Below are positions 3,458 to 64,000 of a stretch of 64,000 bases of DNA, in pieces. Position numbers and translations under genes: made by a program. The DNA is from a virus: positions 22,383-86,382 of IMG/VR virus record IMGVR_UViG_3300030108_001677. The stretch is one strand, 5' to 3'. Position 1 is the stretch's first letter. Each line of letters starts with the position of its first letter. The notes under the pieces were generated by a model. The model did not search any database. It saw only the letters and a program-made list of their open reading frames with translations, and was not told the DNA's origin.

Positions 3458-4804
3458 ACGCTGTTGTAGCGTAGTCGGCATTTGTAGTCCTTTCAACCCG
3501 AACATCTCCACCTGTGGGAATTTGTTTGCCTTTGGCTTACGAAGCCACGGATATATGGTGTAGCCACTGTCTATCGCATCTTTGATATATTCTTCCAGTG
3601 GTTGGTGCTTATCTTTAGCATACATGTAATTAGACAGTATAGATGGTCCGGAATGTTCCCTGCCTAAGCGCAAAATACCACGCTGGAAATCATCGTATGT
3701 TCTCCCCAACTGCTGTAAGCCCGTAGCACCATAGTCCATATCACGGGATATGTAAGGCGGATCTAGATACAACAGGTCGGTGGGTCGTAACAAATCACCG
3801 ATGTCTAACGCATTACCCTGTGTAATGTCCACGCCTTTGTAGCGTGGTGCATAAGCATCAAGATTTATTTTGCGACTCATGTAAGGGAAAGCACGGAAAT
3901 TTTTTGCTTGCTTTTGTTCATCTTCGCTGAACCCATCCCACGAACCCTGTGCGTGGTATCTGTTGAATTGTTCCATAGTGGCTCGACTGTTATCTCGGAA
4001 TTTTTGGTTGGGGTATCGGCCTTCTGTATATGGAACACGATAATCACCTTCAAAATTCTTCATAGGCACTTGTTTGCCCTTCTCATTCATCTCGGTGCGA
4101 CCCTGCCAATCTGTGCCTCTCCAATCGGTGCGGTAACTTGCTAAGTTATTTCCTACGAATAGACGAGCCATTCTCAACAATTCTTCATCGGTCATGTCCT
4201 CTCCATACATGTCACGCCTCATTCTCAAATGATTCAATTCGGCAAAGTTATCGTCTAACTCCTGTTGATTTTGAGGAATCACAACATCACCCATGCCTCT
4301 TTTGGCCTGTGTGTGTATATTCACAATGTCGGGATTCATGTCATTAATCAGCCCAGTGCCACGATTCATACCTAACACGAATGAACCACTACCACCCATA
4401 GGCTCAACGGGTCTATCCCATTCACCTAACTTAGATGCCATGACACGAAACTTGGGCATTTCGCTGGTCTTACCTCCCTCCCAATTGATGAAGGTTGTGA
4501 GCATGTTGTTTTCCGAATCGGTAAATCCTCTCATAGCGTCAAAAATAGGTTGAGGATCTTGTCCAGCCAACACAGCGTTACGCATAGGCATGAGGGGTGT
4601 TCCCTCACGGACACCAATAGAACCCTTCTTTTGCGCTTCTGTGGGCGTAAAAGGTGGGGGTGGTAGTGCTTTCCCTTCTTCTGTGAGTAAGCGCAAGGAT
4701 TCAACAATCATAGGGTCTAATTCGTCTATGTCCTCATACTCAACTCCGTTGAATACAATACCTTTCATGATCGACCACGCTTCGGAGAACGCATCTCGAT
4801 TCAT
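3449..4804 (-). CDS. Dam-like (D12 class) N6-adenine DNA methyltransferase with N-terminal extension
   Basis: INWEGGKT, VEPMGGSGS (motif I), INDMNPDIVN, LYLDPPY (motif IV), ILSN; probable start MNRDAF at 4804. Confidence 0.85.
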   Translation of the reverse strand: MNRDAFSEAWSIMKGIVFNGVEYEDIDELDPMIVESLRLLTEEGKALPPPPFTPTEAQKKGSIGVREGTPLMPMRNAVLAGQDPQPIFDAMRGFTDSENNMLTTFINWEGGKTSEMPKFRVMASKLGEWDRPVEPMGGSGSFVLGMNRGTGLINDMNPDIVNIHTQAKRGMGDVVIPQNQQELDDNFAELNHLRMRRDMYGEDMTDEELLRMARLFVGNNLASYRTDWRGTDWQGRTEMNEKGKQVPMKNFEGDYRVPYTEGRYPNQKFRDNSRATMEQFNRYHAQGSWDGFSEDEQKQAKNFRAFPYMSRKINLDAYAPRYKGVDITQGNALDIGDLLRPTDLLYLDPPYISRDMDYGATGLQQLGRTYDDFQRGILRLGREHSGPSILSNYMYAKDKHQPLEEYIKDAIDSGYTIYPWLRKPKANKFPQVEMFGLKGLQMPTTLQQRLF

Positions 4805-4815
4805 AAACCAACGCC

Positions 4816-4977
4816 TCACTTTTTCGTGTGCCTAAGACCCGACCAGCATATCTCCTGTAATTCAGCGTCATTCTCAAAGATAACAAAATTCAATTCTTCG
4901 GTATCAACCACATCATAAGCAACCCAAGTTACAATAAAACCCAGTATCATTCCGCCTACAAACAAATATCCTATCAT
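4816..4977 (-). CDS. Small membrane protein, 53 aa (not in ORF track)
   Basis: Read manually: MIGYLFVGGMILGFIVTWVAYDVVDTEELNFVIFENDAELQEICWSGLRHTKK; ATGA overlap with the upstream stop; N-terminal hydrophobic helix; fills the gap exactly. Confidence 0.7.
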   Translation of the reverse strand: MIGYLFVGGMILGFIVTWVAYDVVDTEELNFVIFENDAELQEICWSGLRHTKK

Positions 4978-5249
4978 CTATCTCTCGCCACCCTTTGTCC
5001 ACCTGCACCTAATTGCCTTCGCATCTTAGGTCTTGCGCCCGAACCGCTACCTCTTGTCTTACTTCTCTTGTATCGGTTCGCTGTTCGCTTGGATTTGTTC
5101 TTGCGTGATACGCCCCACGCCCTTCTTTTTGCCTGTCGTTCAGCACGGCCTGTGAGAGTATTCTTTGAATATCCTCTAAAATTACCTTTGATTACTGACC
5201 ATCCGACATCTGCGGCACGCTTTTCAACTTGGGATTTGCGTTCCGCCAT
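4974..5249 (-). CDS. Small highly basic (R/K-rich) protein, putative DNA-condensing virion protein
   Basis: GGTGA SD; very R/K-rich after the tag-like motif AADVGWSVIK. Confidence 0.7.
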   Translation of the reverse strand: MAERKSQVEKRAADVGWSVIKGNFRGYSKNTLTGRAERQAKRRAWGVSRKNKSKRTANRYKRSKTRGSGSGARPKMRRQLGAGGQRVARDR

Positions 5250-5392
5250 ATATCACCGCATGAAGGACATTCCCATAAAAATATCCTATCACGACTACCT
5301 GCATAGAACCCGTTTATGCGTAATGCCAACACTTCGGAACCACAAGATTTGCATATTTGTGACACCTTCGCACGATATGTTCTCGCCTTCAT
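5192..5392 (-). CDS. Zinc-ribbon protein
   Basis: CKSCG...WECPSCG; probable start MKART at 5392. Confidence 0.7.
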   Translation of the reverse strand: MKARTYRAKVSQICKSCGSEVLALRINGFYAGSRDRIFLWECPSCGDIWRNANPKLKSVPQMSDGQ

Positions 5393-5414
5393 TCCAATTA
5401 GGTCTAAGTCCAAA

Positions 5415-6542: not shown

Positions 6543-6883
6543 TATCTCACTTCCATGACGACATCTATTCTTACTTCATTGGTAGCATTTTTACTGATAG
6601 GAATGAAAGACGACCTAAACGCTGGGTTGTCTAATGGTGTGTTACCGTGTATAACTACTTCTTTGATTGCTTGTGCCGATACTTGGTCTGTTCCAAACAG
6701 TGCATTCACTGATATGGTTCTATCATCAACACGCTGAACAACTGGTGTTTTGGTTAGTGCTACATTACCCACACCGTTGTTTCTCCTTGAGGCTTCACCG
6801 CCCGTTGTTCCAAGACTCATGTTTTTCACAAGGGTCTGTAAATGGTCTGTTAATTTTGCTTTGATTGAATCTAATATTGGCAT
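6542..6883 (-). CDS. Tail collar / fibre-attachment-like protein
   Basis: SLGTTGG...IKEVVIH...FIPISKNATNEVRIDVVMEV resembles phage tail-collar domains; tail-locus position. Confidence 0.55.
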   Translation of the reverse strand: MPILDSIKAKLTDHLQTLVKNMSLGTTGGEASRRNNGVGNVALTKTPVVQRVDDRTISVNALFGTDQVSAQAIKEVVIHGNTPLDNPAFRSSFIPISKNATNEVRIDVVMEVR

Positions 6884-16218: not shown

Positions 16219-16222
16219 GTTA

Positions 16223-36012: not shown

Positions 36013-37335
36013 TCAAAGGTTTCCTCCGCCATATAACGCACGCTGTCCTAATTCCTCAAGCGCACGCCATCCGTCTAATTCATTTCCAAGTGCCGCAAAT
36101 TCCTCATGGGTTGGCACACGGATTTGGCTTTGTTCCGGCATAGGAACAGCCGATTTTGTAATAGTGGAGTTTTCTTGCTTTAGGTTCTCAATTTCTTGCT
36201 TTAGCATTTCAATCTGTGAAGAATAGTCTTTGGACTTTTGAACAGCCAATGCTTGCTGGGTTTCAGCCTCATATCGGTTTGCCCATTCTTTCTCAACCAG
36301 TGCTTTTACCGCTTCTTCGTCACGAATTGCGGAGTATGCTGAATATCCACGCTCAAGGGATTGTGGAGATAGGTCAAGTCCGGACTTGATTACATGCTTG
36401 CCACTGTTAGGTGCGCTCATTTGCATGTTTGGAACCTGTGGTTGCTTGATAACATACTTGTTGGACACTGCGTTAGGTAGTGTTGGTGCTGGTGCTAATG
36501 TTGCATCTTCACCTGTTCCGTATAGGTCGCCTTGTCCTCGGTGTGTAAATCCGTGATTGCCGTCAACGCCAACCATGTAAGCCTTTCCGAGTCCGAAGTG
36601 GTCACGAAGTCCATCAAGGTCAACGCCTTGTTCGTGGGCAAATTTCTCAAGTGAGTCAATGTATGCCACTGCCGCTTCTTCTTCTTTAGCAAGTGTAGTT
36701 TCCTCCATTACTGGCGGTGCTTCCACTGCTACTTCTTCTTCCATGTGTTTGTTTATGCGTGCGAGCGCATCTCGTATTTCCGTCAATGTTTCTGCTTGTT
36801 CAGTCATAATATCATCATCCATCTTCAATAGTGTATAGGTCGATTCGGGGTTTATTCCTTTTTTACACAGGGTAATTTCATGCAACTCCATGTCCGTGAT
36901 TTCACGGTGGGTTCCATGTTCCGGTGTTGTTTTACTAACACGGAATAGAGCCTGTCCTCCAATAGAGAAGGCTCTCAACTCTCCTGTGCGAATTTGTTTT
37001 TGGACTTCACGGGCTTTCTCGATGTCATTCCTAATTCGGCAAATGACAAACAAGCCGTGATCGTCAACAGTGGATTTCCATACTCGGCCATCACTGTCTG
37101 TGTAATTTGGCAAGACTTCGCCCACTTGAATACCACTGTGTGCCAATTGCACATTACGGTATGCTGGGTCTTTCATGAAGCCATCAAATGCTTTCTTTAG
37201 TGCTGATACTGGGATTCTATCTCCCTGCTTGTCAACCATATCAACCGAAGCATAGCCCGCTATAACAAGGTCGTTGCCAGCATCCGATTTCAAAATGAAA
37301 TCGCTACCAACTGCTGTCCATGTTGCGGTCGCCAT
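36013..37335 (-). CDS. Prohead maturation protease with C-terminal scaffold region
   Basis: IAGYASVDMVDKQGDRI, AH, GLFV, AFSIGG, LHEITLC...NPES; acidic coiled-coil C-terminus. Confidence 0.9.
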   Translation of the reverse strand: MATATWTAVGSDFILKSDAGNDLVIAGYASVDMVDKQGDRIPVSALKKAFDGFMKDPAYRNVQLAHSGIQVGEVLPNYTDSDGRVWKSTVDDHGLFVICRIRNDIEKAREVQKQIRTGELRAFSIGGQALFRVSKTTPEHGTHREITDMELHEITLCKKGINPESTYTLLKMDDDIMTEQAETLTEIRDALARINKHMEEEVAVEAPPVMEETTLAKEEEAAVAYIDSLEKFAHEQGVDLDGLRDHFGLGKAYMVGVDGNHGFTHRGQGDLYGTGEDATLAPAPTLPNAVSNKYVIKQPQVPNMQMSAPNSGKHVIKSGLDLSPQSLERGYSAYSAIRDEEAVKALVEKEWANRYEAETQQALAVQKSKDYSSQIEMLKQEIENLKQENSTITKSAVPMPEQSQIRVPTHEEFAALGNELDGWRALEELGQRALYGGGNL

Positions 37336-43687: not shown

Positions 43688-45490
43688 TTACAGCCCTAAA
43701 CGCCTATCTAAATTCTTCATTCGCTCATCGGCATTCTTGATTGCCTGTGGTGCTGTGTCACGGCTATCACGCTCGGTTGACGACAAATGATGTTCACCCT
43801 CAAAGCGATTTATGTCTTTTGGACTTTTACCCTTTGCTGATGTTCTCCGACTGTTAAGATTCAATTGACTTAGACCCACCCTTCTTAGTGGTTTCAAATC
43901 TGTGCCATGTGTGGTTCGCATGGCTTCGGGCACTACTTCTTGCCCATGAACAGGATCGCTCTCCCTACGCTTCAATATCTCATCCATTGTGGGTGGCATT
44001 CTCCAATCGCTGGTTTGCACTGGCGCACCACCTTGTGGATTAGGTGCTGGTGGTGCGGCACCCGGTGGTGGAGGCGGTGGTGCTGGTGGTGCTTCTTTGT
44101 ATGTGAATTGTAATACACCTAAGTCGTCACGCAGTTTTGCATCGTAGCCCGCTTGCTTCATTTGTAACATATTACGGATTGCCATTTCATCCCTTCGCAT
44201 GACCATGATTTCATCTTCTTCTTCGTGTGGGTGTAATGATATATCCCATTCAGTGATTTGAAGTGCCTCAAGTATCATCGGAAACAATCTTGCATTGTAT
44301 AGTGTTTGGCTTGCGGCCAAAGCACGATTTGTGACAACAATTTGCATACCTTCATTGTTCAATCCTCCACCGGAAACATCATTCATGAATACATTTGACA
44401 CGCCATAAAATGATGAAATACGCTGTCGTATGTCGTCTTTGATAGGTATGTATTGTAATTCTTCAAGGGTGTCCATCATACGGACATACTCAAGACCACC
44501 ACGCCCACTCTCCGTTTCAACACCAACAGTGGGGATATATTGCGGGTCACGCTCAAGGTGTTCCTGTATGTTTCGTGCTGTCCTTTCGACTGTTTCAAGG
44601 TTTGATGATTTGATAACCATAACGCCTCTTGGCATTCTTCGCTTTTGATATGCCGCATAAACATAGTTATCCATAGCAATCAAAGTATTGACCTGTCGCC
44701 AAAGCGTAGCAACAGGAGAGCGACCATACAGTTTAGATGGCGACCATTTGCTGATGTGTATAACTTCACCTTCGGTATAAACTTGGCCTGTGCCCACACC
44801 TGCTAAATTCATGTAATGAACAGGCACTACCGGTAATCCAGTCTTTGGGCATTTCTCATCTTTGTTGCCTGTTCGGAATGAACGGTCAAGAAGGCTGGTA
44901 TATTGCTTACCACCACGCACACCACGCTTATCAGCAACAATACGCATGAAGATAGGGTCAGCACGGGTTATTTCTTTAATTCTATAAAATTGTGGTTGAC
45001 CGGTTGCAGGATCGACAAAGTATTCCTTTGTCAAAATAATGTAAGCATCGTCAACAATATTCAAGTCCATTTCTATTTCACGGAGTATTTCAAGGAATGA
45101 TTGACCCATTCTATTCTGTGCGTGCAACAATGCGTCAGCATATTCATATTCGGCTTTGTCGGCTGGTCGCACTTCACCACCGCACTTCAAACATGTTTCC
45201 ACTTCTTTTTGATAAGTTTCATCGCATTCTCGGCACTTTGCTACAAACTTTGGTTTCCAGTGCCACCCTTTGCGGAATGTTTCGGTAGCAAGATGATTCA
45301 AGATAGAACGCAACACAATTGATTCGTATGCCGCCGCATATAGGGCTGGAATTGTAATACCCTGTAATAGTGGTGGTTCTTGCACACCACTGGTGAATAA
45401 TGGCATCTCCGGTGTGGGTGTGCTATGTCTTTCCATGTCCACACCCAATGCGGAAAACAAACGATCTATTCGTTTCTTATCAGCACTCAT
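43688..45490 (-). CDS. Portal protein with zinc-ribbon insertion and proline-rich C-terminal tail
   Basis: DLNIVDDAY, EVIHIS...YGRSP, RMPRGV, ISSFYGV; insert CRECD...CLKCG. Confidence 0.9.
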   Translation of the reverse strand: MSADKKRIDRLFSALGVDMERHSTPTPEMPLFTSGVQEPPLLQGITIPALYAAAYESIVLRSILNHLATETFRKGWHWKPKFVAKCRECDETYQKEVETCLKCGGEVRPADKAEYEYADALLHAQNRMGQSFLEILREIEMDLNIVDDAYIILTKEYFVDPATGQPQFYRIKEITRADPIFMRIVADKRGVRGGKQYTSLLDRSFRTGNKDEKCPKTGLPVVPVHYMNLAGVGTGQVYTEGEVIHISKWSPSKLYGRSPVATLWRQVNTLIAMDNYVYAAYQKRRMPRGVMVIKSSNLETVERTARNIQEHLERDPQYIPTVGVETESGRGGLEYVRMMDTLEELQYIPIKDDIRQRISSFYGVSNVFMNDVSGGGLNNEGMQIVVTNRALAASQTLYNARLFPMILEALQITEWDISLHPHEEEDEIMVMRRDEMAIRNMLQMKQAGYDAKLRDDLGVLQFTYKEAPPAPPPPPPGAAPPAPNPQGGAPVQTSDWRMPPTMDEILKRRESDPVHGQEVVPEAMRTTHGTDLKPLRRVGLSQLNLNSRRTSAKGKSPKDINRFEGEHHLSSTERDSRDTAPQAIKNADERMKNLDRRLGL

Positions 45491-46802
45491 TTACAATATC
45501 CCTCCGCCATTGTTCAACAGTTTCTTGAGAAGCGTTCCAAGACTTCATCAATTCAACCTGTAAGTCCTTATTGGAATTGTCAAAAGCCAGCACACGCCCT
45601 GCGTTTTCGTCACCTTCTAAAGCGGAAACAACAATAGCCGCATCGGCTTTTTTGATGGTCAAATAAGGCATGGCTTCTTTTGCCGCTTTGAATATAGCAC
45701 TTTCACCTTCTAACACGAATTGCCGACCCTCCCATGTAATGCGCTCGACATCAAGTTTGCTTTTCAATACATTGGCATAATCTTCCCCACGCTTTGTGTC
45801 AAACGGTAGGGTTAGGCGTGGTGTGCCATTTTTCAGTAATTCCAAATTACCGCCAACCTCCCATAGATTACCTATGAAAGAGTCAACATGTTTGAGAAAA
45901 ATAGGTGGTTTTGTTGTTCCATATTGTAATGTCCGATTGTCTTTTGTTGTGCCTTTACCCACTACCACTGTGTCGTATAACCAACCGTATGTCTTAATCA
46001 AACCGGCTAATTCCGAAGGTGTTGCGTCAATTCCATACGATGTTAAATTGGAGGCATTCATATCTCCGTTCTTTCTCAACACTTCATGGCTCTTTTCCAA
46101 CAGGTTTCTCTCCCTACGACTCAAACGCATTTCAGCATTTAGCCTGTCGTGCCATTCTTTCCAAATACCATCAACATCTTCATCACTGGCCTTCTTTACC
46201 TTAGCAACTGTCTTTCGTAATTGATATTCTAACCTGTCCGGATGATTCAATATTACATTGAAGTCATTGTCGTGCAACTGTAACAAATCCCAATCATCAT
46301 CTTGCCACCAATCAAATTGTTTGAGAACAGCCTGTTGCTCTAAGCGTAGTAACTCAACTACACTTGGCACCACATGGCTTTCTCCCGCCTTATGTAACAT
46401 ATCTATGAGATCTGAACCACTAATGCCAAATTCATCTCGGAAAAACGATTTACTAACCGGAACCTTTGGTGGTGCAGTGGTCATTGTGCCGGGTTGTTCG
46501 GTTGGGTTAGCGACTTGCTCTCCACCTTTGAAACCAGTTATTTCAGCACCACTTGTTGCTTCGGGTGGCTGTTTTTCCGTGTTTTCTTCAATAGCCTCTT
46601 GCCGTTGCTTACTGGCTTCTTTTTGTTTTTCGGCTTCTTCAAGTTTAGATTCGACTTGTTGTAATTCTTGCTCTTTCTTTTTCTTTTCACCAAGCAAGTC
46701 ACCACCAAACAAACCACCAACTGTGCTAACCTCCGGTGGCATAATTTTGACAATAGCATCTTCAAAAGAACGCACTTCGGGGTTCCACACTATGCGTGTC
46801 AT
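45480..46802 (-). CDS. Protein with C-terminal degenerate LAGLIDADG-like domain
   Basis: FIGNLWEVGGNL...PRLTL...PYLTIKK resembles a single LAGLIDADG fold without the canonical acidic residue; preceded by a helical/wHTH-like region. Confidence 0.5.
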   Translation of the reverse strand: MTRIVWNPEVRSFEDAIVKIMPPEVSTVGGLFGGDLLGEKKKKEQELQQVESKLEEAEKQKEASKQRQEAIEENTEKQPPEATSGAEITGFKGGEQVANPTEQPGTMTTAPPKVPVSKSFFRDEFGISGSDLIDMLHKAGESHVVPSVVELLRLEQQAVLKQFDWWQDDDWDLLQLHDNDFNVILNHPDRLEYQLRKTVAKVKKASDEDVDGIWKEWHDRLNAEMRLSRRERNLLEKSHEVLRKNGDMNASNLTSYGIDATPSELAGLIKTYGWLYDTVVVGKGTTKDNRTLQYGTTKPPIFLKHVDSFIGNLWEVGGNLELLKNGTPRLTLPFDTKRGEDYANVLKSKLDVERITWEGRQFVLEGESAIFKAAKEAMPYLTIKKADAAIVVSALEGDENAGRVLAFDNSNKDLQVELMKSWNASQETVEQWRRDIVNEC

Positions 46803-48235
46803 ATATCAGCCCACCCTATCCTCTTAGTCCATGTAGCACTGTCAAGTATTACAATGTTATCACGATATTCCTTTGTGGCTTGCACTGCCAACGCTAACGC
46901 AATAACTGTATCGTCATGCGCCCCCAATGACTCCATTTTGCCATTAGGCAACATGGTGAACATTGACAATTCATTAAGCAAAGTATCTATCATTCTCCGT
47001 GTTCTCCCTTCTTCCTTGTATGGCAACAGCAAGTGTCGCTGTTCAAAATGCAATTGAAGGCTATGTATAATTGCTTCCTTTCTCATACGGCTCATAGTGA
47101 ACGGTTTGATAGGTAAATCGCTAATCTCCTTCAATACTTGATGGAACGCCTGTGCAAAATTGTTGGTTTCCAATTCGACAACAACGGGGTTAAATCTCGC
47201 ATTTAATTCTATGATTTTATCAATCTGTGAATTGAAGTCCATTCCCTTTTCATGGTGCATCCATACTACACGCTTATGCCTATTCTCATCCATAGCGATA
47301 ACACACATACAGGTATAGTCAGCCTTTCTATCGGGGCTGATTGCAGGATCCCAACCAATGTAATAATTGACATTCTCATCAAAGTCACCCGCATACGGGT
47401 CAAGGACAAATGCGTAATCTTCATCTTTACACGGCTCGGTCATTTCCACTGGAAACAGACTCGACTCACTGGCTATCGGCTTACATAGATATTCACGGGT
47501 AAATGCTATTGATGTCATTTCTCCCCTTCTTTGTTGTAGTGCCTCAAGCGACCAGCGTTCCGGCCAAAGGGGCTTACCAGTTTCTTCATTGATAGCAGGG
47601 TATTCTCTAACTTGATACCCTTTGAGTCCTTTCAACTCTTGATACAGGTCAGTGTATGAGAACGGTGTTCCAACAATACACAACTGTGCTGTGTGGTGAA
47701 GCACTGGCAATAGAGCAGTATAGAACCAAGAAGCAACATGTGTCAATTGTGTTGCCGCTTCGCTGGACAATATATCGTCAAGCACTACAATGTCGGGGTG
47801 GGCACCACGAACCGCTTTACCAACGGACATAGCCGATATAGATGATTTATTTGTGAATTTGAATTTTTGCTTCGCCCACCCACGCTTAGGTTTCAAGTGC
47901 TGTAATGCTGGCACTGTTTCAATCAACTCATTCATTTTAGCCATGTGTTCAATTGACTGGTGTTGGCTGTGTGAGAAAAATAAGACTTCTGTGCCGGGAT
48001 TGTAAGCCATTTTCCAAAGTAAATACACCCTGTAAAATACGGATTTACCGTGGTCACGGGATGCAATCACACAAGTCTTGTTATGGTTCTCGGACATGTC
48101 GAACCATTCTTGATGAAAGTCAGCAACCATGTAGTTTTCGTGTTTTCCGCAAATGTCCTCAAAGAAATACTTGAAATCCCTGCGACCCATCTCCCAGTCA
48201 ACATTCTTCGCTAACTCATGGATGCCATTACTCAT
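46799..48235 (-). CDS. terL: Terminase large subunit
   Basis: HQ, ASRDHGKS (Walker A), VVLDD (Walker B), VGTP, LWPERW, IGWDPA, DY, ETN, HDDTVIALALA. Confidence 0.95.
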   Translation of the reverse strand: MSNGIHELAKNVDWEMGRRDFKYFFEDICGKHENYMVADFHQEWFDMSENHNKTCVIASRDHGKSVFYRVYLLWKMAYNPGTEVLFFSHSQHQSIEHMAKMNELIETVPALQHLKPKRGWAKQKFKFTNKSSISAMSVGKAVRGAHPDIVVLDDILSSEAATQLTHVASWFYTALLPVLHHTAQLCIVGTPFSYTDLYQELKGLKGYQVREYPAINEETGKPLWPERWSLEALQQRRGEMTSIAFTREYLCKPIASESSLFPVEMTEPCKDEDYAFVLDPYAGDFDENVNYYIGWDPAISPDRKADYTCMCVIAMDENRHKRVVWMHHEKGMDFNSQIDKIIELNARFNPVVVELETNNFAQAFHQVLKEISDLPIKPFTMSRMRKEAIIHSLQLHFEQRHLLLPYKEEGRTRRMIDTLLNELSMFTMLPNGKMESLGAHDDTVIALALAVQATKEYRDNIVILDSATWTKRIGWADI

Positions 48236-48241: not shown

Positions 48242-50212
48242 TCAGCCCGTTATTTCATCTATTTCATCATCGCTAAATCCGTGATGATCGACTAAATCGG
48301 CCTTATCATTCCTCAAACGGCTAATGGCTGATGCGTTTCCGTTCCTTGCCGCTTCAACCACTTCATTGACATAATCTTTATCGGTTGAGCCGGAAATGTA
48401 TCTTGTGTAAGTTTTATCCTCCGGCTCACTCACCGCTTCTTTTTTTTTAGCCTGTTGGCGTTTTTCGCTTCGGGCTTTTGCCGCCGCTTCATTACCCTCA
48501 TTGACCGTTTTCTTTTTTGGATTCTTGTTGCGTTGCCTTGCCTTTTGTGTTGGCTTTGGGAATGGTTTTACACCTTGACCTTTTTCCTTTCTATTCTTTG
48601 CCGTAGTTTCAACAAGTTTCTTTGCTGATGCGTTCTTTGGCTTGGCTGGCTCTTGCATAACTTGGGCACCTTCTATGTCCTCGTTAACTGGCTTCTTACC
48701 TCTTTGGGCTTTGGTGCTTCCGGTCTTTTTCTTAGGCGGTGCTTCTTCTCGCATTTCTTGGGTGCCTTCAATTGGCTTTTCCGTCTTAGCCTTTTTAGGT
48801 GCGGCCTTCTTAGGTGCGGCCTTCTTAGGTGCGGCCTTCTTAGGCGGTTTCGGTTCATCCTCCGGTGGTCGCTCGTAACTGTATTTTTCTCTTATCTTTT
48901 CCCTACGATCTTTTTGCTTCAAACGATTATCTTTGTATCTTGCTTCGGGGTGTTGAGCATCTTTTTGCTCTTGAGATCTGTTATTGACTTCATCAAATGG
49001 TTTTCTCCGTTGAATACCGCCCATAGGCTGGGGTTCACGGGATTCCACCTTTTCCGTTAGCATTCGGCTCTCCGGCCTTCGCTTCATTGGTAGTGCCCCT
49101 TTTGGCATCCGTGTGCCTGTTCGTGTGGTTGTCATTTCGTCAACCGAAGGCTTGTCAGTTTTCTCGGCCTCTAACATTTCTCTTAACTGGTCTTGCTTAC
49201 CCGAACCTGCAAGAGCCTCAATTTCTCTTTCCCGTTCAGTCATAGATTCTGTTTCCTCCATTTCCTGTGGAGGCTCAATCATTTGGCCTCGGTTATCAAT
49301 ACCAAATTCTCTTAATTCAGCATCTAAATCTCGCCGTTGTGGGTAATCTGTAAGTCTTGTTTGCATTTCGTCAAGCCCTGCCCTTGTCGCAGTTTTTTCG
49401 GGTGTCGTTTGTTGTGGCTCAATTGGTTTCATATCGTTATTGATTCTATCATATATGCTTTGCATTGATGATGGGGTTGTTGGGGCGGCTCGCCCTCCCA
49501 TTTCTTCACGCATTTCGGCCAATCGGCTTGAAGCACTGTCGGGGTCAACATCTCTATACTTGTTAGCAATTGATGGCGGTGTTGATGTAATTGATTGTTC
49601 CTCTTGCCTTGCTGTCAATTCATCGGGGGCATACATCCTTAGCCATTCATCGGCTGGTTCTTTACCGTGTGTTCTAATGTAAGATTCCCTTACACCTATT
49701 CCTTTTGACTTTGGTTCCCGTGCCTCCATCGTTGGTGGTGAACCACTGGCACTTTCCACTGTTCCTTGAGCAGTTTCTTGTTCAGCAGGTTGTCGTCTAA
49801 ACCTACTCATAAAATTGCTAATACCTTGCTTGGCTCGGCCAAACATACCTGTCTTGTTTGGGTCACGGGTTTCGCTTCGGCCTTGACTAAAGTTAGCACC
49901 CATACCTGTTGGTTGTTGTTGCCCTGCGCTTTCCAAAGATGCACCCTCATTCATTTGACCGAAGGGATCTGCTGGTTGTGGTGCCATTGTCCTTGACATG
50001 TTTGCTTGTTGTCTTTCTTGCGCTTGTCGCTGTTGTTGCGCTTGTTGTGCCGCATTATATTGGTCAACAAACTCTTGAGAATATTGCGGTGCTTTCATCA
50101 CCTGTTCCCATACTTGAGAAAATAATTGCTTAGAATCACGACCTTTGCGTAGTGGTTGTTTGCCCATCATTTCTTCACGGGCTTTGATTAGAAGATCGTC
50201 ATACCTATCCAT
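48242..50212 (-). CDS. Large disordered Q/E/K/P-rich protein with histone-H1-like KKAAP repeats
   Basis: Start MDRYD at 50212 with GGTGA SD; PKKAAPKKAAPKKAAPKKA. Confidence 0.75.
   Translation of the reverse strand: MDRYDDLLIKAREEMMGKQPLRKGRDSKQLFSQVWEQVMKAPQYSQEFVDQYNAAQQAQQQRQAQERQQANMSRTMAPQPADPFGQMNEGASLESAGQQQPTGMGANFSQGRSETRDPNKTGMFGRAKQGISNFMSRFRRQPAEQETAQGTVESASGSPPTMEAREPKSKGIGVRESYIRTHGKEPADEWLRMYAPDELTARQEEQSITSTPPSIANKYRDVDPDSASSRLAEMREEMGGRAAPTTPSSMQSIYDRINNDMKPIEPQQTTPEKTATRAGLDEMQTRLTDYPQRRDLDAELREFGIDNRGQMIEPPQEMEETESMTEREREIEALAGSGKQDQLREMLEAEKTDKPSVDEMTTTRTGTRMPKGALPMKRRPESRMLTEKVESREPQPMGGIQRRKPFDEVNNRSQEQKDAQHPEARYKDNRLKQKDRREKIREKYSYERPPEDEPKPPKKAAPKKAAPKKAAPKKAKTEKPIEGTQEMREEAPPKKKTGSTKAQRGKKPVNEDIEGAQVMQEPAKPKNASAKKLVETTAKNRKEKGQGVKPFPKPTQKARQRNKNPKKKTVNEGNEAAAKARSEKRQQAKKKEAVSEPEDKTYTRYISGSTDKDYVNEVVEAARNGNASAISRLRNDKADLVDHHGFSDDEIDEITG
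48795..48844. repeat. 15-bp perfect tandem repeat x3 (KKAAP)
   Basis: ttaggtgcggccttc three times plus a partial copy. Confidence 0.9.
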
Positions 50213-50216
50213 GTTA

Positions 50217-53089: not shown

Positions 53090-54726
53090 CGCTTTCCAGC
53101 CCCCGCACCTGCTACTGGCAAGAGCGAAGTATCTTCAAATTTCCAACCTTTTAGATTTTCAGTGGCACCCGTTGGGGCACTGTTTTTATCTTCGCTGGCT
53201 TGGTTGCCACGCTTGGCCTCCGCACCTAACTCCGGTGTTGCTTTAGTCAACTTCTCAACTGCCGCCAACAATTTTTTCAAATCCCTCTTTAGTGATTGTA
53301 ATTCGTTTATCTTAAAACCGCTAAGTTTTACACCTCGACTCAATAGACTTGATTTCGCTAACGGTTCTCCGCCCAGTGCATCGTGAAGAAGCACCCCTTC
53401 GCTTTCAGCCGTCTTTGGCCTCACGAATTTAGTGCCCCTGCTACCTGCTGGGCTTGATGGTAATTTTGTTCCTGTTCCAATAGTTTGGACTCTTTCACCA
53501 GTGATACCTCTTGTATCAGCGTGAGCCGATAGTCCTCTTGGCAACGCACCCATTTGCCTACGGAATTTTTCAGCCGCTAATTTTCTTTGGTATGCAACAG
53601 GGTCACGCAACCTCAAAGGCATGTCTTTTGCTCTTGGATTACCACTGAACATTCTTCGTGGTGCGAATGCTTGTTGTTTGGTGTAGCGTTGAAGATTTTG
53701 TTCGGCTGATGCGGCACGCCTTTTTGTCTTACTGTATGGTTGACGGCTTGCCTCTTTCTTGCCTTGTTTCATCCTACGCCTTCTTTCACGCTTGCCTTTT
53801 TTCTTGGCCTTTGCTTCTTCTTCTTCGGATTCTTCATCTTCTTCATACTTACGCCCACGCTTCTTACGCTTGGCTTTGAGTATGTCCGAAAGCAAAACAG
53901 GATCGGCTGACTTCGGTAAGTTTTTGTTCCAATCGGGTGCTACACCTATTGGAGTCGGAACAAACCATTTGAAATCGTCTTTATGATAACCGCCTAATCC
54001 GTGTTGAGCGTGTTCAACAATGCCTTCACGGGTTATTTTCTCGTCTTTAGGGTCAATCTTACCTTTTGCATCCCCAGCCGCTTGTTCTATGAATGGTTGG
54101 CCTGTTGGAGTTATAGCAATATCTGTAAGCATGAATTGATTACTTGTTTTGCGCTGTTCGGGATCCATTTCAAAGTAATCGTCTTGTAATCTTTCAGCCA
54201 TCTCATCCTCTAAATTTTCCCGCATTTCATCAATGGTGGGAATATCATCATCATCGTCTTTCATCACAGTCCAAGCATCTTCAAACGCATCTTCACTGCG
54301 ACCAAATATCATACCCGGACCTTCCCTGCGAATAGAACCTGCTTGTCGCCCCTGTGAAATGCCAATACCCGTGCTATCCATGTCAATACCCATGCCAGTT
54401 TCTTTGAAAGCATCTTCACCCACCTTCATTGGTGTGCTACTTAGAGTATCAGCAATCTTTTCCGGCTTGATTGAGATATGCGGCATTTCGCCTTTCATTT
54501 CGTCAAGTGCCTTCTTTCGCCTTTTCTCCCTATCCATTTGTTCCATTGTTTCTTCGGATGCGGCACCATATTGGCTAACATGAGATAAGCCATCGGAGTT
54601 TTCATTGGCGTTCACATCGTAATCGCCTAACATCTCACGGGGTCTAAACCCACCTGTAAATTCTTGAACCCGTATGGATTCTTCACCTACATTTCTTCGT
54701 GGGTTAGCCATTGGCATGTATATCAC
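53086..54726 (-). CDS. 546-aa charged protein with acidic and basic blocks
   Basis: KAKRKKRGRKYEEDEESEEEE; internal tag AFEDAWTVMK. Confidence 0.75.
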   Translation of the reverse strand: MIYMPMANPRRNVGEESIRVQEFTGGFRPREMLGDYDVNANENSDGLSHVSQYGAASEETMEQMDREKRRKKALDEMKGEMPHISIKPEKIADTLSSTPMKVGEDAFKETGMGIDMDSTGIGISQGRQAGSIRREGPGMIFGRSEDAFEDAWTVMKDDDDDIPTIDEMRENLEDEMAERLQDDYFEMDPEQRKTSNQFMLTDIAITPTGQPFIEQAAGDAKGKIDPKDEKITREGIVEHAQHGLGGYHKDDFKWFVPTPIGVAPDWNKNLPKSADPVLLSDILKAKRKKRGRKYEEDEESEEEEAKAKKKGKRERRRRMKQGKKEASRQPYSKTKRRAASAEQNLQRYTKQQAFAPRRMFSGNPRAKDMPLRLRDPVAYQRKLAAEKFRRQMGALPRGLSAHADTRGITGERVQTIGTGTKLPSSPAGSRGTKFVRPKTAESEGVLLHDALGGEPLAKSSLLSRGVKLSGFKINELQSLKRDLKKLLAAVEKLTKATPELGAEAKRGNQASEDKNSAPTGATENLKGWKFEDTSLLPVAGAGAGKR

Positions 54727-55184
54727 TCTAAGTTATTAATTCCGTATTTGGCGGTTTCGGGGTCAAAGTCCTCTTGTTCTTTGGGTTTCTTCATTGGATT
54801 ATCCCCATACATTCGCTTCAAGCGAGCCAACAAATCCGGATCTCTTGGCATACCAGCGTGCATGGCTGGTGGGTTGGGTTTTACATTCAACACCCCGTCA
54901 AGCGCACCATCCTTTGGTAAGCGTGGGTTCATTTTCAAAATTGAAAAACCAGCGTTGATTGCCTTGTCGTTTGTTGATTTTAATTTGATGTAAGCCTTTC
55001 CTTCATCTAAGGCTTCTAACATACTGCTTTCCCTTTTATCATCTCTAATAGAATCTAAAGCAACAGGGTTCCTTGCACAATTTATTGCTTGCACATCATG
55101 GATTGGCATTCGGCATTCTTCATGTGGGTTAGCCCCACAGGCTGGGCAATTTGGCGACATATCTCCTTTCATCAGCAATTCCAC
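54723..55184 (-). CDS. Hypothetical protein with N-terminal zinc-finger-like motif
   Basis: CPACGA.P...C....H; internal AINAGFSILK. Confidence 0.65.
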   Translation of the reverse strand: MELLMKGDMSPNCPACGANPHEECRMPIHDVQAINCARNPVALDSIRDDKRESSMLEALDEGKAYIKLKSTNDKAINAGFSILKMNPRLPKDGALDGVLNVKPNPPAMHAGMPRDPDLLARLKRMYGDNPMKKPKEQEDFDPETAKYGINNLE

Positions 55185-55801: not shown

Positions 55802-56022
55802 TTCACCCCAGCCCAAGCGTCACAAGTGTGATCTGCACGACAAACAAAGTCATACCATTCACAATAACCAGTCATTGGATTATCAGTTTTAGAAACATCC
55901 CACGCTTTACAGTTACCACAGCACTTGTTATTTGTGCATTTGCGGTAATTGGGGGCATCCTCTTTTGCTTTGAGGATAGCCCAAGCGTGGTCGAATGCTT
56001 CTTGATTAATCATCGGACTCAC
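55798..56022 (-). CDS. Small four-Cys HiPIP-like protein
   Basis: PNY...CGNCKAW...GYC...HTCDAW after the tag AFDHAWAILK. Confidence 0.55.
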   Translation of the reverse strand: MSPMINQEAFDHAWAILKAKEDAPNYRKCTNNKCCGNCKAWDVSKTDNPMTGYCEWYDFVCRADHTCDAWAGVK

Positions 56023-56279
56023 TTCTTGCTTTTCTTACTCTTTTTCTTCCAGCCGCCGCCTTTGGATTTATACCATTTAGCCGCCCAGCCATTAGCGTAT
56101 GCTGACGGATATACTTTGAATTTAGACCTTGCTTTGCTTTTGGCTTGTGCCCACAAACTTGGGTTTGTTGGGGCGTTCTCGCCTTTGTCCATTCCGCCTT
56201 TTACTACATCCCATCCGGCTAAAAATGCGGAATCGCCAATAGCCGTCATGGTAACTGTTCTATCACTTTTGTCATTCAT
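56019..56279 (-). CDS. Small basic phage protein (PSAY...WYKSKGG family, DUF5872-like)
   Basis: PTNPSLW..AK..A..KFKVYPSAYANGW..KWYKSKGGGW. Confidence 0.7.
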   Translation of the reverse strand: MNDKSDRTVTMTAIGDSAFLAGWDVVKGGMDKGENAPTNPSLWAQAKSKARSKFKVYPSAYANGWAAKWYKSKGGGWKKKSKKSKK

Positions 56280-56704: not shown

Positions 56705-57396
56705 TCCATCATCTCCTTGAACGCATCATCGTATTGACCCTCTCCACCACCAATTCCCATAGCCCTCATGGCTCTTAGATTGTCGGCATAATTCATATCC
56801 AGTCTGTGGTTATGCACACGGATCGCTTCTTCTAATGGTGTTTCTTCTGTGCCCATTAGTCCGGCTAAATCATCCATAGTTATGGAAAATCCGCCCATAG
56901 GTATCATACCCATTCTCCTACCTGTTTCATTAGGATTTACACCTTCCAAGTGAATATCCATTTCATAAGGATTTTCAGCATCAATGACCCCTCCAACACC
57001 TTCGGAATTTACCATGTAAAATTCACCATTGGGTGCTTGCACTACAAACTGATCTCCATGTGAAACTCTTGGCTTTGACGACCATCCATCATCATCACGG
57101 TATGGTGTAGCCATATCTATCATAGGGTAGCCATCTTCATCAACATACCCAGCACGCAAGTGTTTGTCATATTGTTCATCAGTCATTCCCATATCCGCAA
57201 ATGGGTGTCGCATTCGTGGCACTTCGTATGTTCCTTCATTCATCTGTGCCAATACATTATCGTGGAACCTTTGGGCAAATTCTTGGAGTCTATCGGGGTC
57301 AAGCCTACGCATCATAATGTTTGACGGCTCTCTATTCCCATGAACACCCCTGCGTTTCAGTAAAGTCCAACCAATATCAAACGCCTTATTGTCCAT
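56701..57396 (-). CDS. Hypothetical acidic M/G/D-rich protein with N-terminal tag
   Basis: Probable start MDNKAFDIGWTLLK at 57396. Confidence 0.7.
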   Translation of the reverse strand: MDNKAFDIGWTLLKRRGVHGNREPSNIMMRRLDPDRLQEFAQRFHDNVLAQMNEGTYEVPRMRHPFADMGMTDEQYDKHLRAGYVDEDGYPMIDMATPYRDDDGWSSKPRVSHGDQFVVQAPNGEFYMVNSEGVGGVIDAENPYEMDIHLEGVNPNETGRRMGMIPMGGFSITMDDLAGLMGTEETPLEEAIRVHNHRLDMNYADNLRAMRAMGIGGGEGQYDDAFKEMME

Positions 57397-61628: not shown

Positions 61629-61629
61629 T

Positions 61630-61767: not shown

Positions 61768-61793
61768 GTATAAATCCCAGTCCTGTGAAGGCT

Positions 61794-61802
61794 ATGAAGG
61801 TT
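61794..61802 (-). promoter_or_regulatory. Putative promoter motif AACCTTCAT upstream of the RHH/GTPase operon
   Basis: About 27 nt upstream of ATG 61767; recurrent motif. Confidence 0.45.
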
Positions 61803-61804
61803 GT

Positions 61805-61813
61805 GATTAAATA
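61805..61813 (+). promoter_or_regulatory. TATA-like box for the leaderless 61836 gene
   Basis: GATTAAATA centred about 26 nt upstream of the ATG; no obvious SD. Confidence 0.4.
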
Positions 61814-61835
61814 GAAGGGCGACTTCGGGTTTAAC

Positions 61836-62348
61836 ATGCCATCTGCAAACATGCCCGATGCAGTAAAAGCCATGCGCTCATATTATTTTGTAATAAACGC
61901 AATACCAAACAGCCCCGAAGTTTTATCCTCATGGATTCAAAGGCATACTGATGAGGCATTAGCGGCTGACTTTGATTACAGGGCGGCAATCGCTGTTTTA
62001 CATCATTTTAACCATCCGTTGTATTCAAACACATCAAACCACCCATCGGGCACTACATCGTGGTGTAACCTAATGACTGGTGCTGAAACCATATTACAAG
62101 ACGAACAGGCTTGGATAAATGACCAGTTAGAAATCGCTAACATCACACGACCACAGCGTTTGTTTGATTCCGACATTACATGGTTGAACGCTTGGGCAAC
62201 GGCTAACGGTATTCCACAAAACCTTGAAACCGCTTTCTTAGTCAATATGCTAATTCAACAATTGCGAACATGTGAGGGTAGCAACGGTGCTACTGGTGCT
62301 GGTGGTATATCGCATACTGAACGCAATCCGCCAACAAACTTACCTTAG
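61836..62348 (+). CDS. Hypothetical protein (only plus-strand gene in the late region)
   Basis: 170-aa ORF filling the gap; TATA upstream; its stop overlaps the convergent gene. Confidence 0.7.
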   Translation: MPSANMPDAVKAMRSYYFVINAIPNSPEVLSSWIQRHTDEALAADFDYRAAIAVLHHFNHPLYSNTSNHPSGTTSWCNLMTGAETILQDEQAWINDQLEIANITRPQRLFDSDITWLNAWATANGIPQNLETAFLVNMLIQQLRTCEGSNGATGAGGISHTERNPPTNLP

Positions 62349-63469
62349 TCACGCATTTGCTCAAATATATTTTCTAAAGCCATTTGCCTCATGGTTGGAG
62401 GTAACTTGGAAAGTGCCCTTTGATTTTCAAGATAGACACTCCTACCTCCCCTTCGGAAACATGCACGACAACCCATCTCACCAGTTAATGGATCTCTAAC
62501 AAGATTGCACTTCTTTGGATTACCGGGTATGGTTGCCCTGCAAATGGTATCGGGATTGCTTGGTATCTTGTCAAACCCTGTCATACCCAACATTGGTTTT
62601 CCATCAGCACCCAATAACCTCGACAATTCTCCGACATTGATTGTCCTATTTGGCACATCTTTACTGGTAAAGGTAATATCGGTGTTGTCTTTTACCTGTT
62701 CGGGCAACATCCTACCCGGTAGCGACATTTGTATTGCTAAGTTTGGTGCAATAGCATCCGGCTCAAATCCTCTTGCTTCTAAGAAGTCATACAAATATGG
62801 TATTTGTCTTGTGGACATCCACATGTCCACCATCGGATTCCTACGGGCTATCTGATCTGCTAAAGCAAACGCACCCGAACCTCTTGCATTTCCAGCCGAA
62901 AATACTCTTGCGTTTATGTCGTCTGTGGGTCTTTTGCGGGCTAACATGGCCGATGGTGTCAAGGTTTCAGCGTATGCCGCACCTATCTGTTCGGGATAAT
63001 TCAACATCCTGTCAAGATTACGCCATTGTGATATTTGCACAGTAGGATAACCATAGTTACCCTTACAAGCATAACAATGACCACAAGCCATGTTAGGATT
63101 TTCTCTATCGGCAAATATACACGCTCTTGGTGGAGAGTCCATTATAGAAGGTCCGGGCATCTTGTTGGGTTCACCATAGTGTCCAAACTTAGCGGGTTTT
63201 ATACTTTGGAGATTTGCTGGCAAATCCCCTCTAATATCCTCAAAAATTGGCAAATCATAGTCCATCTCAAGCGGGATGTCAATTAAACGGGGAACACCAC
63301 CGGGATTCAAATAAGCATCCACCTTTTCCGGATTCGCTTCAATGAATCTTGCAGGGTTTATTTTGACTGGGGGGTTTCGTCTAAACTTATCCCAAGCAAG
63401 CATATCATCTTCATCGCCTACTGCTTTGATTAGCAATTTGCCTAACTGATGGGTTATAGCATCAATCAA
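62345..63469 (-). CDS. Gp88-like (radical-SAM-related, Cys-rich) protein
   Basis: NKMPG...P..AC...ACGHCYA.KG.Y, RVFSAGN, WMSTR, NLAIQMS, C-terminal C...C...CRAC; start TTG 63469 or ATG 63499. Confidence 0.65.
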   Translation of the reverse strand: MIDAITHQLGKLLIKAVGDEDDMLAWDKFRRNPPVKINPARFIEANPEKVDAYLNPGGVPRLIDIPLEMDYDLPIFEDIRGDLPANLQSIKPAKFGHYGEPNKMPGPSIMDSPPRACIFADRENPNMACGHCYACKGNYGYPTVQISQWRNLDRMLNYPEQIGAAYAETLTPSAMLARKRPTDDINARVFSAGNARGSGAFALADQIARRNPMVDMWMSTRQIPYLYDFLEARGFEPDAIAPNLAIQMSLPGRMLPEQVKDNTDITFTSKDVPNRTINVGELSRLLGADGKPMLGMTGFDKIPSNPDTICRATIPGNPKKCNLVRDPLTGEMGCRACFRRGGRSVYLENQRALSKLPPTMRQMALENIFEQMRD

Positions 63470-64000
63470 AGAAAAGCCCCCTGTTTCAGCACAGCCCATC
63501 CACCTTCAAAGGCGTTTTGGGGTTCCGACATCATAAAGTCCATTAAATCGGTTTGCTTGTTCTCCTTCGGCAAGAAACGACCATACCCATGATTTTGTAG
63601 TAATTCATTGATTGAATGACCATCCATATTGGGTATGTTAGCCACACCGACCATCTCTAACTTATCTCCACGAAGTGATGGGTTAGCACCGCTATTGTCC
63701 GGCCTGTTTATGATTGTAGTGTCCAACCCGATGTCTTTGTATTGTTCAATGGGCGCAATACTGTCAAAAGCCATGACTGGTTGGCCTTCTTGTATTCTTT
63801 CTTCTAATTGCCTCAATGTTGGTCTTGGGTCAAACCCAACACCGTATGAACCCGGCTCACCCGAATAGGGCGGGTCGTTTATCAGCAACTTGTTGTTGTC
63901 AATATCCCATTCGGCCAGTGCTTCGGCACCATCTCCCTGTCTAACATTTACATTTTGTAATGGATCTCGGTAATTTAACAGGCTTTCCGAAGTGGGTAAG
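63466..64000 (-). CDS. C-terminal part of a second N6-adenine DNA methyltransferase (truncated by window edge)
   Basis: Frame is open from the window end: ...NVNVRQGDG...LLINDPPYSG (motif IV); ends with QTDLMDFM and AFEGGWAVLK. Confidence 0.65.
   Translation of the reverse strand, partial: LPTSESLLNYRDPLQNVNVRQGDGAEALAEWDIDNNKLLINDPPYSGEPGSYGVGFDPRPTLRQLEERIQEGQPVMAFDSIAPIEQYKDIGLDTTIINRPDNSGANPSLRGDKLEMVGVANIPNMDGHSINELLQNHGYGRFLPKENKQTDLMDFMMSEPQNAFEGGWAVLKQGAFL

Follow-up and report, generated by a model that had tools for sequence, protein, structure and literature searches.

Proteins that are otherwise unrelated share one short peptide in a magrovirus-like archaeal tailed virus known from a single 86,382-bp contig (IMGVR_UViG_3300030108_001677), which we have analysed over a window of 64,000 nt (bases 22,383-86,382 of the contig). 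The peptide, called the tag below, is 11 residues long, has the consensus x-A-F-x-x-[AG]-W-x-h-h-K (where x is any residue and h a hydrophobic one) and lies in coding frames of the minus strand. On the evidence of the sequences, it is a portable peptide that is selected at the protein level and carried by unrelated products of the late strand. The interpretation that we favour on balance, by analogy with phage T4, is that it serves as a capsid-targeting helix ending in a protease site and would be a portable address tag of magrovirus-type viruses. Below, we describe the recurrence of the tag, its carriers and its relation to the prohead protease of the virus, and then weigh this interpretation against others.

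The recurrence of the tag is not due to chance. Scores obtained with a pooled matrix are bimodal: eight sites in the window reach 21.5-30.6 bits and the next-best segment has 10.0 bits. A second, independent 12-column matrix was trained only on 38 tags of three relatives (G001, G002 and G003), the window being left out to avoid circularity. It finds eight sites of at least 10 bits in the 58 open reading frame (ORF) translations of the window (21,285 residues); 200 shuffles of the residues gave 0.06 sites on average and one at most. The strict pattern AFxx[AG]Wx[ILVM][ILVM]K fits six of the window sites and, applied as a DNA pattern, gives the same number of matches in the window and none in 100 dinucleotide-preserving shuffles. 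All eight strong tags share a strand with the head and tail genes. The strict pattern is absent from the plus-strand frames of the whole contig, the 39 called plus-strand genes of the contig (replication and recombination genes among them) carry no tag, and no match of 11 bits or more occurs in tail-module and plus-strand ORFs of the window. Outside the tag, the carriers in the window have no mutual similarity (BLASTP, E ≤ 1e-3). Where two copies of the tag have the same residue, their third codon positions agree in a fraction of 0.54; the codons thus vary between copies, and the DNA is not repeated. Much of this had been read from the sequence in a first-pass annotation, namely that nine such peptides lie on the minus strand, that their carriers share nothing else, that the likeness is one of protein and not of repeated DNA, and that the tag was not seen in tail and replication proteins. 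These observations hold; all nine peptides are in place, eight of them strong and the ninth an uncertain variant that is longer by one residue.

The tag is not tied to one place in its carrier. Among the eight strong sites, five are N-terminal, two internal and one C-terminal, and the five N-terminal tags follow plausible starts with a purine-rich stretch upstream. One carrier is the Dam-like methyltransferase (Pfam MethyltransfD12, 43.8 bits with the cut-off at 22; NCBIfam dam below its own cut-off), with GTGAGG about 10 nt upstream of its ATG and a homologue in G002 that is likewise tagged. The very basic 91-aa protein has homologues in G001, G002 and G003, all of which retain the tag. The 71-aa carrier, which has the best-scoring site, contains seven cysteines and belongs to no Pfam family, and for the 231-aa carrier there is no lead from Pfam, NCBIfam or the ESM Atlas. 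In the 546-aa protein, the tag separates a part of 145 aa from one of 390 aa; both flanks are conserved in G001 and G002, and the region is kept as IF[GS]RSxxAFEDAWSxxK in many relatives. The ESM Atlas offers no usable look-alike of this protein (predicted template modelling score of the Atlas model 0.14). The degenerate tag of the 153-aa protein, in which Ile and Phe replace Phe and Trp, links a zinc-ribbon module to an MNPRLPKDG module. Relatives show a canonical KSFDAGWSVVK at that place, and the two modules are found separately in relatives. The DUF5872-like module is preceded by the tag in all nine aligned sequences, and without exception in eight relatives, be it N-terminal or behind another module; that it is tagged either way means that the tag is portable.

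The C-terminal tag could be suspected of being a frameshift artefact (a run of five G and fusion to the next ORF). This can be ruled out: the same arrangement, with three or four residues after the lysine, occurs in all three relatives that hold the region (L074, L075 and L076), and in L074 the 386-aa ORF is complete. The carrier had been labelled a second methyltransferase, a label that we could not confirm, as it has a DPPY motif only and the full-length 386-aa relative has no Pfam, NCBIfam or PDB-sequence match. In the ninth site, QLFSQVWEQVMK, W and K stand one residue further apart, a spacing that is kept in G001 and G002 (VFEYVWDxxQK); whether it belongs to the tags as a variant is uncertain. 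The sites are collected in Table 1, together with the candidate lysine sites of the protease and the main head genes.

Table 1. Tag sites, candidate lysine sites of the protease-scaffold protein and head genes of the window; the coordinates of tag sites are those of 12-residue windows.
Feature	Position in window	Strand	Score or conservation	Carrier or remark
Tag DAFSEAWSIMK(G)	4760..4795	-	26.5 bits	Residues 4-14 of Dam-like D12 DNA methyltransferase (ORF 3449-4804, ATG MNRDAF...)
Tag RAADVGWSVIK(G), without Phe	5184..5219	-	21.6 bits	Residues 11-21 of 91-aa very basic protein (ORF 4974-5249, isoelectric point 12.0)
Tag-like QLFSQVWEQVMK	50093..50128	-	Unscored by matrix	Residues 34-45 of 661-aa protein just upstream of large terminase (ORF 48242-50227)
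Tag DAFEDAWTVMK(D), internal	54256..54291	-	27.1 bits	Residues 146-156 of 546-aa protein (ORF 53086-54726)
Tag KAINAGFSILK(M), degenerate, internal	54930..54965	-	21.5 bits pooled, 13.2 independent matrix	153-aa protein (ORF 54723-55184)
Tag EAFDHAWAILK(A)	55966..56001	-	30.6 bits, best of window	Residues 5-15 of 71-aa Cys-rich protein (ORF 55798-56013, ATG MINQEAF...)
Tag SAFLAGWDVVK(G)	56196..56231	-	21.7 bits	Ahead of DUF5872-like basic module (ORF 56019-56279, 86 aa; probable ATG at 56249)
Tag KAFDIGWTLLK(R)	57352..57387	-	29.2 bits	Residues 4-14 of 231-aa protein (ORF 56701-57396, ATG MDNKAF...)
Tag NAFEGGWAVLK(Q), C-terminal	63481..63516	-	24.4 bits	Five residues, then stop; protein runs off contig end (ORF 63466-63999+; DPPY motif)
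Candidate Lys site Y167-T-[LI]-L-K171-M	36823-36837	-	Invariant 47/47	Directly after protease fold
Candidate Lys site N292-x-x-V295-I-K297	36445-36453 (V295-I-K297)	-	Invariant 47/47	
Candidate Lys site I316-K317	36385-36390	-	Invariant 47/47	
Large terminase subunit	46799..48235	-	phrog_38, E 7.3e-74	
Portal protein	43688..45490	-	phrog_18178, E 1.3e-60	Also Pfam Phage_portal
Major capsid protein (HK97-like)	34839..35999	-	phrog_24667, E 2.4e-46	Also Pfam SU10_MCP
Prohead serine protease (S78) with scaffold-like C-terminal half	36013..37335	-	Pfam Peptidase_S78, 37.5 bits (cut-off 21)	

Relatives of the virus in IMG/VR were found through the large terminase subunit (57 loci) and through the protease (80 loci kept), on contigs of up to 108 kb. 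Across 136 loci anchored in this way (1,824,038 bp, both strands) there are 92 matches of at least 16 bits, all on the gene strand and 68 of them unique. Among the 68, A is conserved in 58, F in 61 and W in 66; the Phe lies within 20 residues of an ATG in 53 and at residues 3-6 in 28. The residue after the tag lysine is variable, and the sequence beyond it diverges while the motif stays intact. Three near-complete relatives, G001, G002 and G003 (96-101 kb, estimated completeness 91-95%), hold 17, 7 and 18 matches of at least 14 bits, compared with at most 0.1 per shuffled gene set. In G001 (94.4-99.2 kb) and G003 (20.1-28.4 kb), 8-12 small genes follow one another in arrays; each of them begins M-[TNS]-A-F-D-T-A-W-x-L-L-K and has a purine-rich site, like a ribosome-binding site, ahead of its start. 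The present contig ends short of the position expected for such an array. The DNA pattern that corresponds exactly to MTAFDTAW was matched 61 times; the matches are clustered and co-oriented and fall into 49 stretches on 26 IMG/VR contigs, of which 16 are also among the relatives found through terminase or protease.

The tag-flanking pieces of four genomes (58 pieces) fall into 43 BLAST clusters, with one paralogous family of five members. No Pfam match at E ≤ 0.01 is found for 34 of 41 carriers from relatives, and those passing the Pfam cut-off are only a D12 methyltransferase and a chaperonin that is a false positive: the peptide RAFDDAAGVVK (21.7 bits) lacks Trp and lies inside the chaperonin domain of the G001 thermosome. 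A 374-aa protein of G001 (L059:2442-3563, plus strand) starts with the tag variant KALDRGFSLLK and has a weak C5 cytosine methylase match (16.4 bits, below the cut-off); it is possibly a further tagged DNA-modifying enzyme.

The pattern is not above control in the archaeal genomes sampled: 301 genomes of one phylum (that of a Thermoplasmatota metagenome-assembled genome; about 0.6 Gb, the marine group II share unspecified) gave 12 matches, compared with 7 for the control. Eight of the ten places examined among the archaeal matches scored at least 12 bits, and none of these begins a gene. In the halovirus HVTV-1 (NC_020158.1), which is the closest relative in culture, no coding tag is present in the 97.3 of 102.3 kb scanned. 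No description of the tag was found in the magrovirus papers searched in full text (supplements excluded), the main ones being silent on a motif, an N-terminal signal, a leader or an internal protein. A full-text search likewise returned nothing on capsid targeting in archaeal viruses.

It had been proposed from the window alone that the tag is a portable label made of an amphipathic helix. The portability, the selection at the protein level and the conservation stand, and the helix is supported by prediction; the label is not always an N-terminal leader. In an AlphaFold 2 (AF2) model of the 76-aa DUF5872-like carrier (from a nine-row alignment), residues 3-19, which include the tag, form one helix with a predicted local distance difference test (pLDDT) score of 65-72, and a short coil comes next. 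If the tag is drawn as a helical wheel, A1, F2, A/G5 and W6 together with the final hydrophobic residue would fall within an arc of about 140 degrees, and the tag is accordingly predicted to be a short amphipathic helix.

The lysine at the end of the tag is almost never replaced by arginine. The first eight tag columns (x-A-F-x-x-A-W-x) were used as a probe and the final three positions ignored. The 106 unique matches have Lys at the expected place in 84 cases and one residue later in eight; Arg is found once. A requirement for Lys only, at the very edge of the motif, fits the P1 site of a protease, or a reaction of the amino group, better than it fits a salt bridge.

The virus encodes a protease that could read such a site. 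Its prohead protease belongs to Pfam S78 and is fused to a scaffold-like half. In the AF2 model the confident fold comprises residues 15-157, and pLDDT is below 50 for residues 160-180 and 253-322. The best Foldseek hit of the model is T4 gp21 (5jbl; E 6e-5, TM score 0.52 by target), followed by herpesvirus proteases. A search of 5.8 billion proteins gave 1545 clusters at E ≤ 1e-5, with at least 61% identity among the 120 matches listed. An alignment of 47 sequences, which are 61-98% identical to that of the window, contains three invariant islands that end in Lys, the Lys being kept in every aligned sequence. These islands sit in linkers that are otherwise variable and, with pLDDT below 50, predicted to be disordered. 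The first of them, Y-T-L-L-K171, shares with the end of the tag the form [aromatic]-x-h-h-K. Two other places were considered as cleavage sites and dropped: F-I-L-K16 of the protease belongs, in the AF2 model, to the first strand of the fold, and G-T-D-L-L-K37 of the capsid protein is part of a region that is conserved as a whole, its Lys not being kept, by eye, in the HVTV-1 N-arm. In HVTV-1, the protease (73933-75846) has F-G-V-V-S-K-A-D-G-D after the S78 domain at the equivalent joint, and I-H-I-V-K-N further on, both of them similar to the Lys-ended islands of the magrovirus. Because the former stands at that joint, a Lys-ended protease joint may be older than the tags.

There is a precedent for such a cut in phage HK97, where the capsid protein is cleaved between K103 and S104 in an unstructured stretch (PMC10275583, in excerpt). 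The presence of an S78 protease, the invariant linker islands, the preference for Lys over Arg and the HK97 precedent together give indirect support to a cleavage site at the tag lysine. The mechanism that we propose by analogy is as follows. The tag helix would dock its carrier to part of the head during assembly, be it the scaffold or the inner surface of the capsid. A changeable set of proteins would thereby be enclosed in the prohead, comprising the Dam-like methyltransferase, one very basic small protein, small proteins with zinc ribbons or rich in Cys, and numerous ORFans. The last four or five residues of the tag, [W/Y]-x-h-h-K, would be recognized by the S78 prohead protease that the virus itself encodes, with the cut following the Lys. 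Such a cut would take off an N-terminal tag and separate fused modules, while a C-terminal tag would be retained on its carrier, and the cargo would be delivered with the DNA. A packaged methyltransferase would make sense as protection for incoming DNA, as for DarB of phage P1. More tentatively, and with rather less confidence than we place in capsid targeting itself, the tag may be a two-in-one 'dock and cut' code, in which a hydrophobic face of seven residues (A-F-x-x-A-W) docks and the S78 protease, specific for Lys, reads the adjoining [W/Y]-x-h-h-K, the same code serving to free the protease and to dismantle the scaffold. Docking followed by cutting would explain why unrelated proteins share the tag, why a tag stands at each fusion joint, why the tagged set differs between close relatives and why the tag is confined to the strand of the morphogenetic genes.

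Several observations weigh against this proposal. No receptor for the tag was found. The ORFs between portal and protease (1168, 487, 184, 123 and 116 aa), which are the likeliest to encode internal proteins, are without a tag; the highest score among them, 10 bits, belongs to the N-terminus of the 116-aa ORF. The C-terminal tag is conserved as such, and a cut would leave it on the protein, so leader removal cannot be the sole use of the tag. Unlike T4 internal proteins, the carriers are not basic: their median isoelectric point (pI) is 5.48 (n = 48), compared with 5.47 for 338 other ORFs (p = 0.50), and the idea that tagged proteins resemble the T4 ones in this respect has to be rejected. The tagged arrays of the relatives are 16-30 kb away from the head genes and open the long operon, which is where many phages keep their early genes for host takeover; the arrays could thus be early genes. 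As to the protease, its 440-aa chain has five h-h-K sites, only about 2.5 times a rough expectation from composition. The protease of HVTV-1 contains a comparable Lys-ended junction and yet, over the part scanned, the virus has no tags, which means that the protease motif alone does not imply tags.

The conserved face of the tag need not be meant for the capsid. It might instead dock the carriers to some other partner (a sliding clamp or the replisome, a viral chaperonin, DNA or a host hub), so as to recruit DNA-modifying and small DNA-binding proteins, although we consider this unlikely. The tag does behave as a short linear motif would, being helical with a conserved hydrophobic face and standing at termini or between modules, and DNA-related carriers are not lacking (the Dam-like methyltransferase, the weak C5-methyltransferase match in G001, zinc ribbons and the pI-12 protein). 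Partners of a clamp should include replication proteins, however, and the 39 plus-strand genes are untagged; nor does the consensus fit the PIP (PCNA-interacting protein) box, Q-x-x-h-x-x-aromatic-aromatic, so that an identity with that box fails on both counts. Magroviruses do encode a clamp and a clamp loader of their own (PMC5434244, in excerpt). A chaperonin would be a further candidate, since a group II chaperonin (thermosome) is encoded by G001 (L062:10761-12302; Cpn60_TCP1, 494 bits), G002 and G003, within a few kb of tagged genes in the first two. Against it, none was seen in the examined part of the present contig, the sole tag-like match in a chaperonin is the Trp-less one within the chaperonin domain, and only 12 of 26 magroviruses have a chaperonin in the excerpt of PMC5434244. 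An electrostatic contact with any such partner would also accept Arg, which occupies the position once in 106. Alternatively, the tag could be a processing signal and nothing else, at which the S78 or another Lys-specific protease, in the cytoplasm or on the prohead, would cut fusions and propeptides at [W/Y]-x-h-h-K, much as viral polyproteins are cut, with no loading of the capsid. This we think still less probable. The invariant Lys with its variable neighbour, the tags at module joints and Y-T-L-L-K exactly at the boundary of protease and scaffold would all be expected of it, but a cleavage site needs some four to six residues and A-F-x-x-[AG]-W is equally conserved, which suggests a second function. 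In addition, many tags are at the extreme N-terminus, where a cut frees a mere 12-residue peptide and would be pointless unless the peptide had acted before, and prohead proteases of this fold (those of HK97 and T4) act inside proheads.

Chemistry at the lysine, and an absence of any function, are the readings to which we give least credence. The invariant Lys might be a site of covalent chemistry (an isopeptide cross-link to the capsid like those of HK97 shells, acylation or a ubiquitin-like modification) with the helix as recognition element. Lys is almost never replaced by Arg, as if its epsilon-amino group reacts, and the family of the capsid protein includes shells that cross-link themselves; set against this, no modifying enzyme has been identified in the window and the Lys islands of the scaffold linkers are better explained by proteolytic removal of the scaffold, and we regard the idea as very improbable. 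It is harder still to believe that the tag does nothing, as what is left of an N-terminal exon of common ancestry that duplication or gene conversion has spread, or as an accident. Several tags of the G003 arrays are nearly identical in DNA (ACC GCC TTC GAC ACC GCT TGG), which is evidence of recent duplication or conversion within the arrays, and the five-member paralogous family exists. In the window, by contrast, the codons differ freely, and the flanks of the four genomes fall into their 43 clusters; tags are found at N-termini, at joints, at a C-terminus and on an enzyme defined by Pfam, and the shuffles exclude chance while the motif stays intact where the sequence past the Lys diverges.

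Capsid targeting followed by a cut has its closest parallel in T4, whose prohead protease gp21 removes the capsid targeting sequence from internal proteins. These are a diverse set sharing only that sequence, which carries them into the scaffolding core (PMC3012670, in excerpt). Like the T4 sequence (found on IPI-III and Alt), the magrovirus tag is a peptide of about 10-12 residues, mostly N-terminal and the sole feature common to diverse and fast-changing proteins, as far as the excerpt of PMC3012670 describes them. The magrovirus also encodes a prohead protease of the gp21 fold, and its tag ends in what is apparently the preferred residue of that protease. There are clear differences. Packaging and cleavage are established for T4 and are proposed for the magrovirus. 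No sequence likeness to the T4 peptide is apparent, and common descent of the tags is not claimed. The candidate cut follows Lys, not Glu; the protease, to which the scaffold is joined, belongs to Pfam S78 (the type of HK97); tags are found at module joints and at a C-terminus as well; and the host is archaeal. HK97 itself offers the second parallel. Its protease gp4 we take to be the type of Peptidase_S78, which would place the two enzymes in the same family; we know of no shared tag on unrelated cargo proteins in HK97. The delta domain of the HK97 capsid protein acts as scaffold, in contrast to the protease-fused scaffold of the magrovirus, whose protease has a putative site preference. The Lys islands of the magrovirus lie in predicted disordered linkers and HK97 cuts after Lys; the HK97 cut falls in an unstructured stretch (PMC10275583, in excerpt), whereas AF2 places the tag in a helix with a short coil after it.

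Comparison with other cargo systems is also of use. The tag shares with encapsulin cargo-loading peptides a short sequence on unrelated cargo and an HK97-fold shell, although docking in the magrovirus is presumed. Such encapsulin peptides stand at either end of unrelated cargo and dock inside the shell; they are not removed, and their sequences are unrelated to the tag; encapsulins themselves lack a portal, DNA and a maturation protease. That the shell is itself an encapsulin can be ruled out, as the same operon encodes portal, large terminase, tape measure and tail tube. Phage P1 carries the DarB methyltransferase/helicase in its head, and a DNA methyltransferase as head cargo would, as there, shield incoming DNA from restriction; the Dam-like enzyme of the window is tagged. 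To our knowledge, no short tag common to many proteins exists in the Dar system, where loading of the head depends on DarA and Hdf according to the excerpt of PMC12810830. From the propeptides of giant phages, the magrovirus tag differs in being helical and Lys-ended. The giant-phage motifs are places where T4-like proteases cut after Glu, on proteins located to the head by mass spectrometry. Many internal head proteins of SPN3US and phiKZ are processed at a short shared motif of this kind (PMC10052503 and PMC7411985, both in excerpt).

What would probably be new here is that cargo targeting of the T4 type is found in a virus of archaea and relies on a protease of the HK97 type, Lys taking the role of Glu. 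To the first reading of the window the present analysis adds the islands of the protease linkers, the count of Lys against Arg, the checks against sampled archaeal genomes and a cultured relative, and the demonstration that C-terminal tags are real. This is important because magroviruses rank high in abundance among the viruses of the surface ocean, none of them is cultured and their takeover of the host is almost uncharted. If the interpretation is true, a recognizable tag allows the proteins that are probably carried into the cell to be listed from sequence only. The tagged list turns over fast between close relatives and includes DNA methyltransferases, which places it at the front line of virus-host conflict. 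It would also follow that the T4 principle extends to archaeal viruses and to the HK97-type protease family, that no system of cargo delivery had been described for an archaeal virus before this one, and that any gene or fusion module can become injected cargo by the addition of 11 residues, including methyltransferases that pre-arm the incoming genome. A short encapsidation tag for foreign proteins in HK97-fold shells would then be ready-made.

As to the contig, its long ORFs are almost all on the minus strand, between 63,999 and 3,449 of the window, and the operon also encodes a tail tube-like protein and a tape measure. The tags cluster 2-10 kb upstream of the large terminase on the same strand. 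An ERCC4/XPF-type nuclease is encoded on the plus strand (window 1-3457), and no tRNA and no Rfam family was found within the window. The nearest cultured relatives of the protease are those of the haloviruses HCTV-5, HVTV-1 and HCTV-1, with 31-32% identity. A halovirus-like head module combined with a replication module of its own, in a genome of about 100 kb, is the pattern of magroviruses, the viruses of marine group II archaea, in the excerpt of PMC5434244; as the kin of the protease match it, the contig is assigned to a magrovirus-like archaeal tailed virus, from this gene pattern and not from a tree. Downstream of the tape measure are two giant minus-strand ORFs (3119 and 1691 residues, 6883-21298), which have a single Laminin_G_3 domain as their sole Pfam match and no tags, and are presumably tail or host-recognition proteins.

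Some smaller observations concern the surroundings of the tags. At 57386-57396 on the minus strand, the start codon (ATG) of the tagged gene for the 231-aa protein overlaps the end of the zinc-ribbon gene upstream of it, 57386-58099 (GAAGATGGACAATAA), in the final codons, which suggests translational coupling. An apparent conserved non-coding element at 57388-57492 proved to be the C-terminal coding region of that same upstream gene, read in a different frame. A GP88-like ORF (62345-63499) starts inside the coding sequence of the C-terminal tag (63466-63499, minus strand) in another frame, and the same overlap is present in L074. A 214-aa protein (55172-55816, minus strand) consists of DUF5872 (residues 18-88) and DUF6321 (139-212) and has, exactly between the two domains, the weak peptide KAFVIREELLKG (5.6 bits, without Trp), which may be a decayed joint tag. 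Between terminase and portal, a 440-aa protein (45480-46802, minus strand) begins MTRIVWNPEVRSFEDAIVK, in which F-E-D-A...K is like a tag that has been shortened; G001-G003 retain a Lys at about residue 19 while the N-terminal sequence otherwise varies. Finally, at contig position 9415-9882 (plus strand), outside the window, a 155-aa ORF begins MKTTAFTKAWFDGYY, with the T-A-F-x-x-A-W half of the tag and without h-h-K; it is the only tag-like N-terminus off the late strand.

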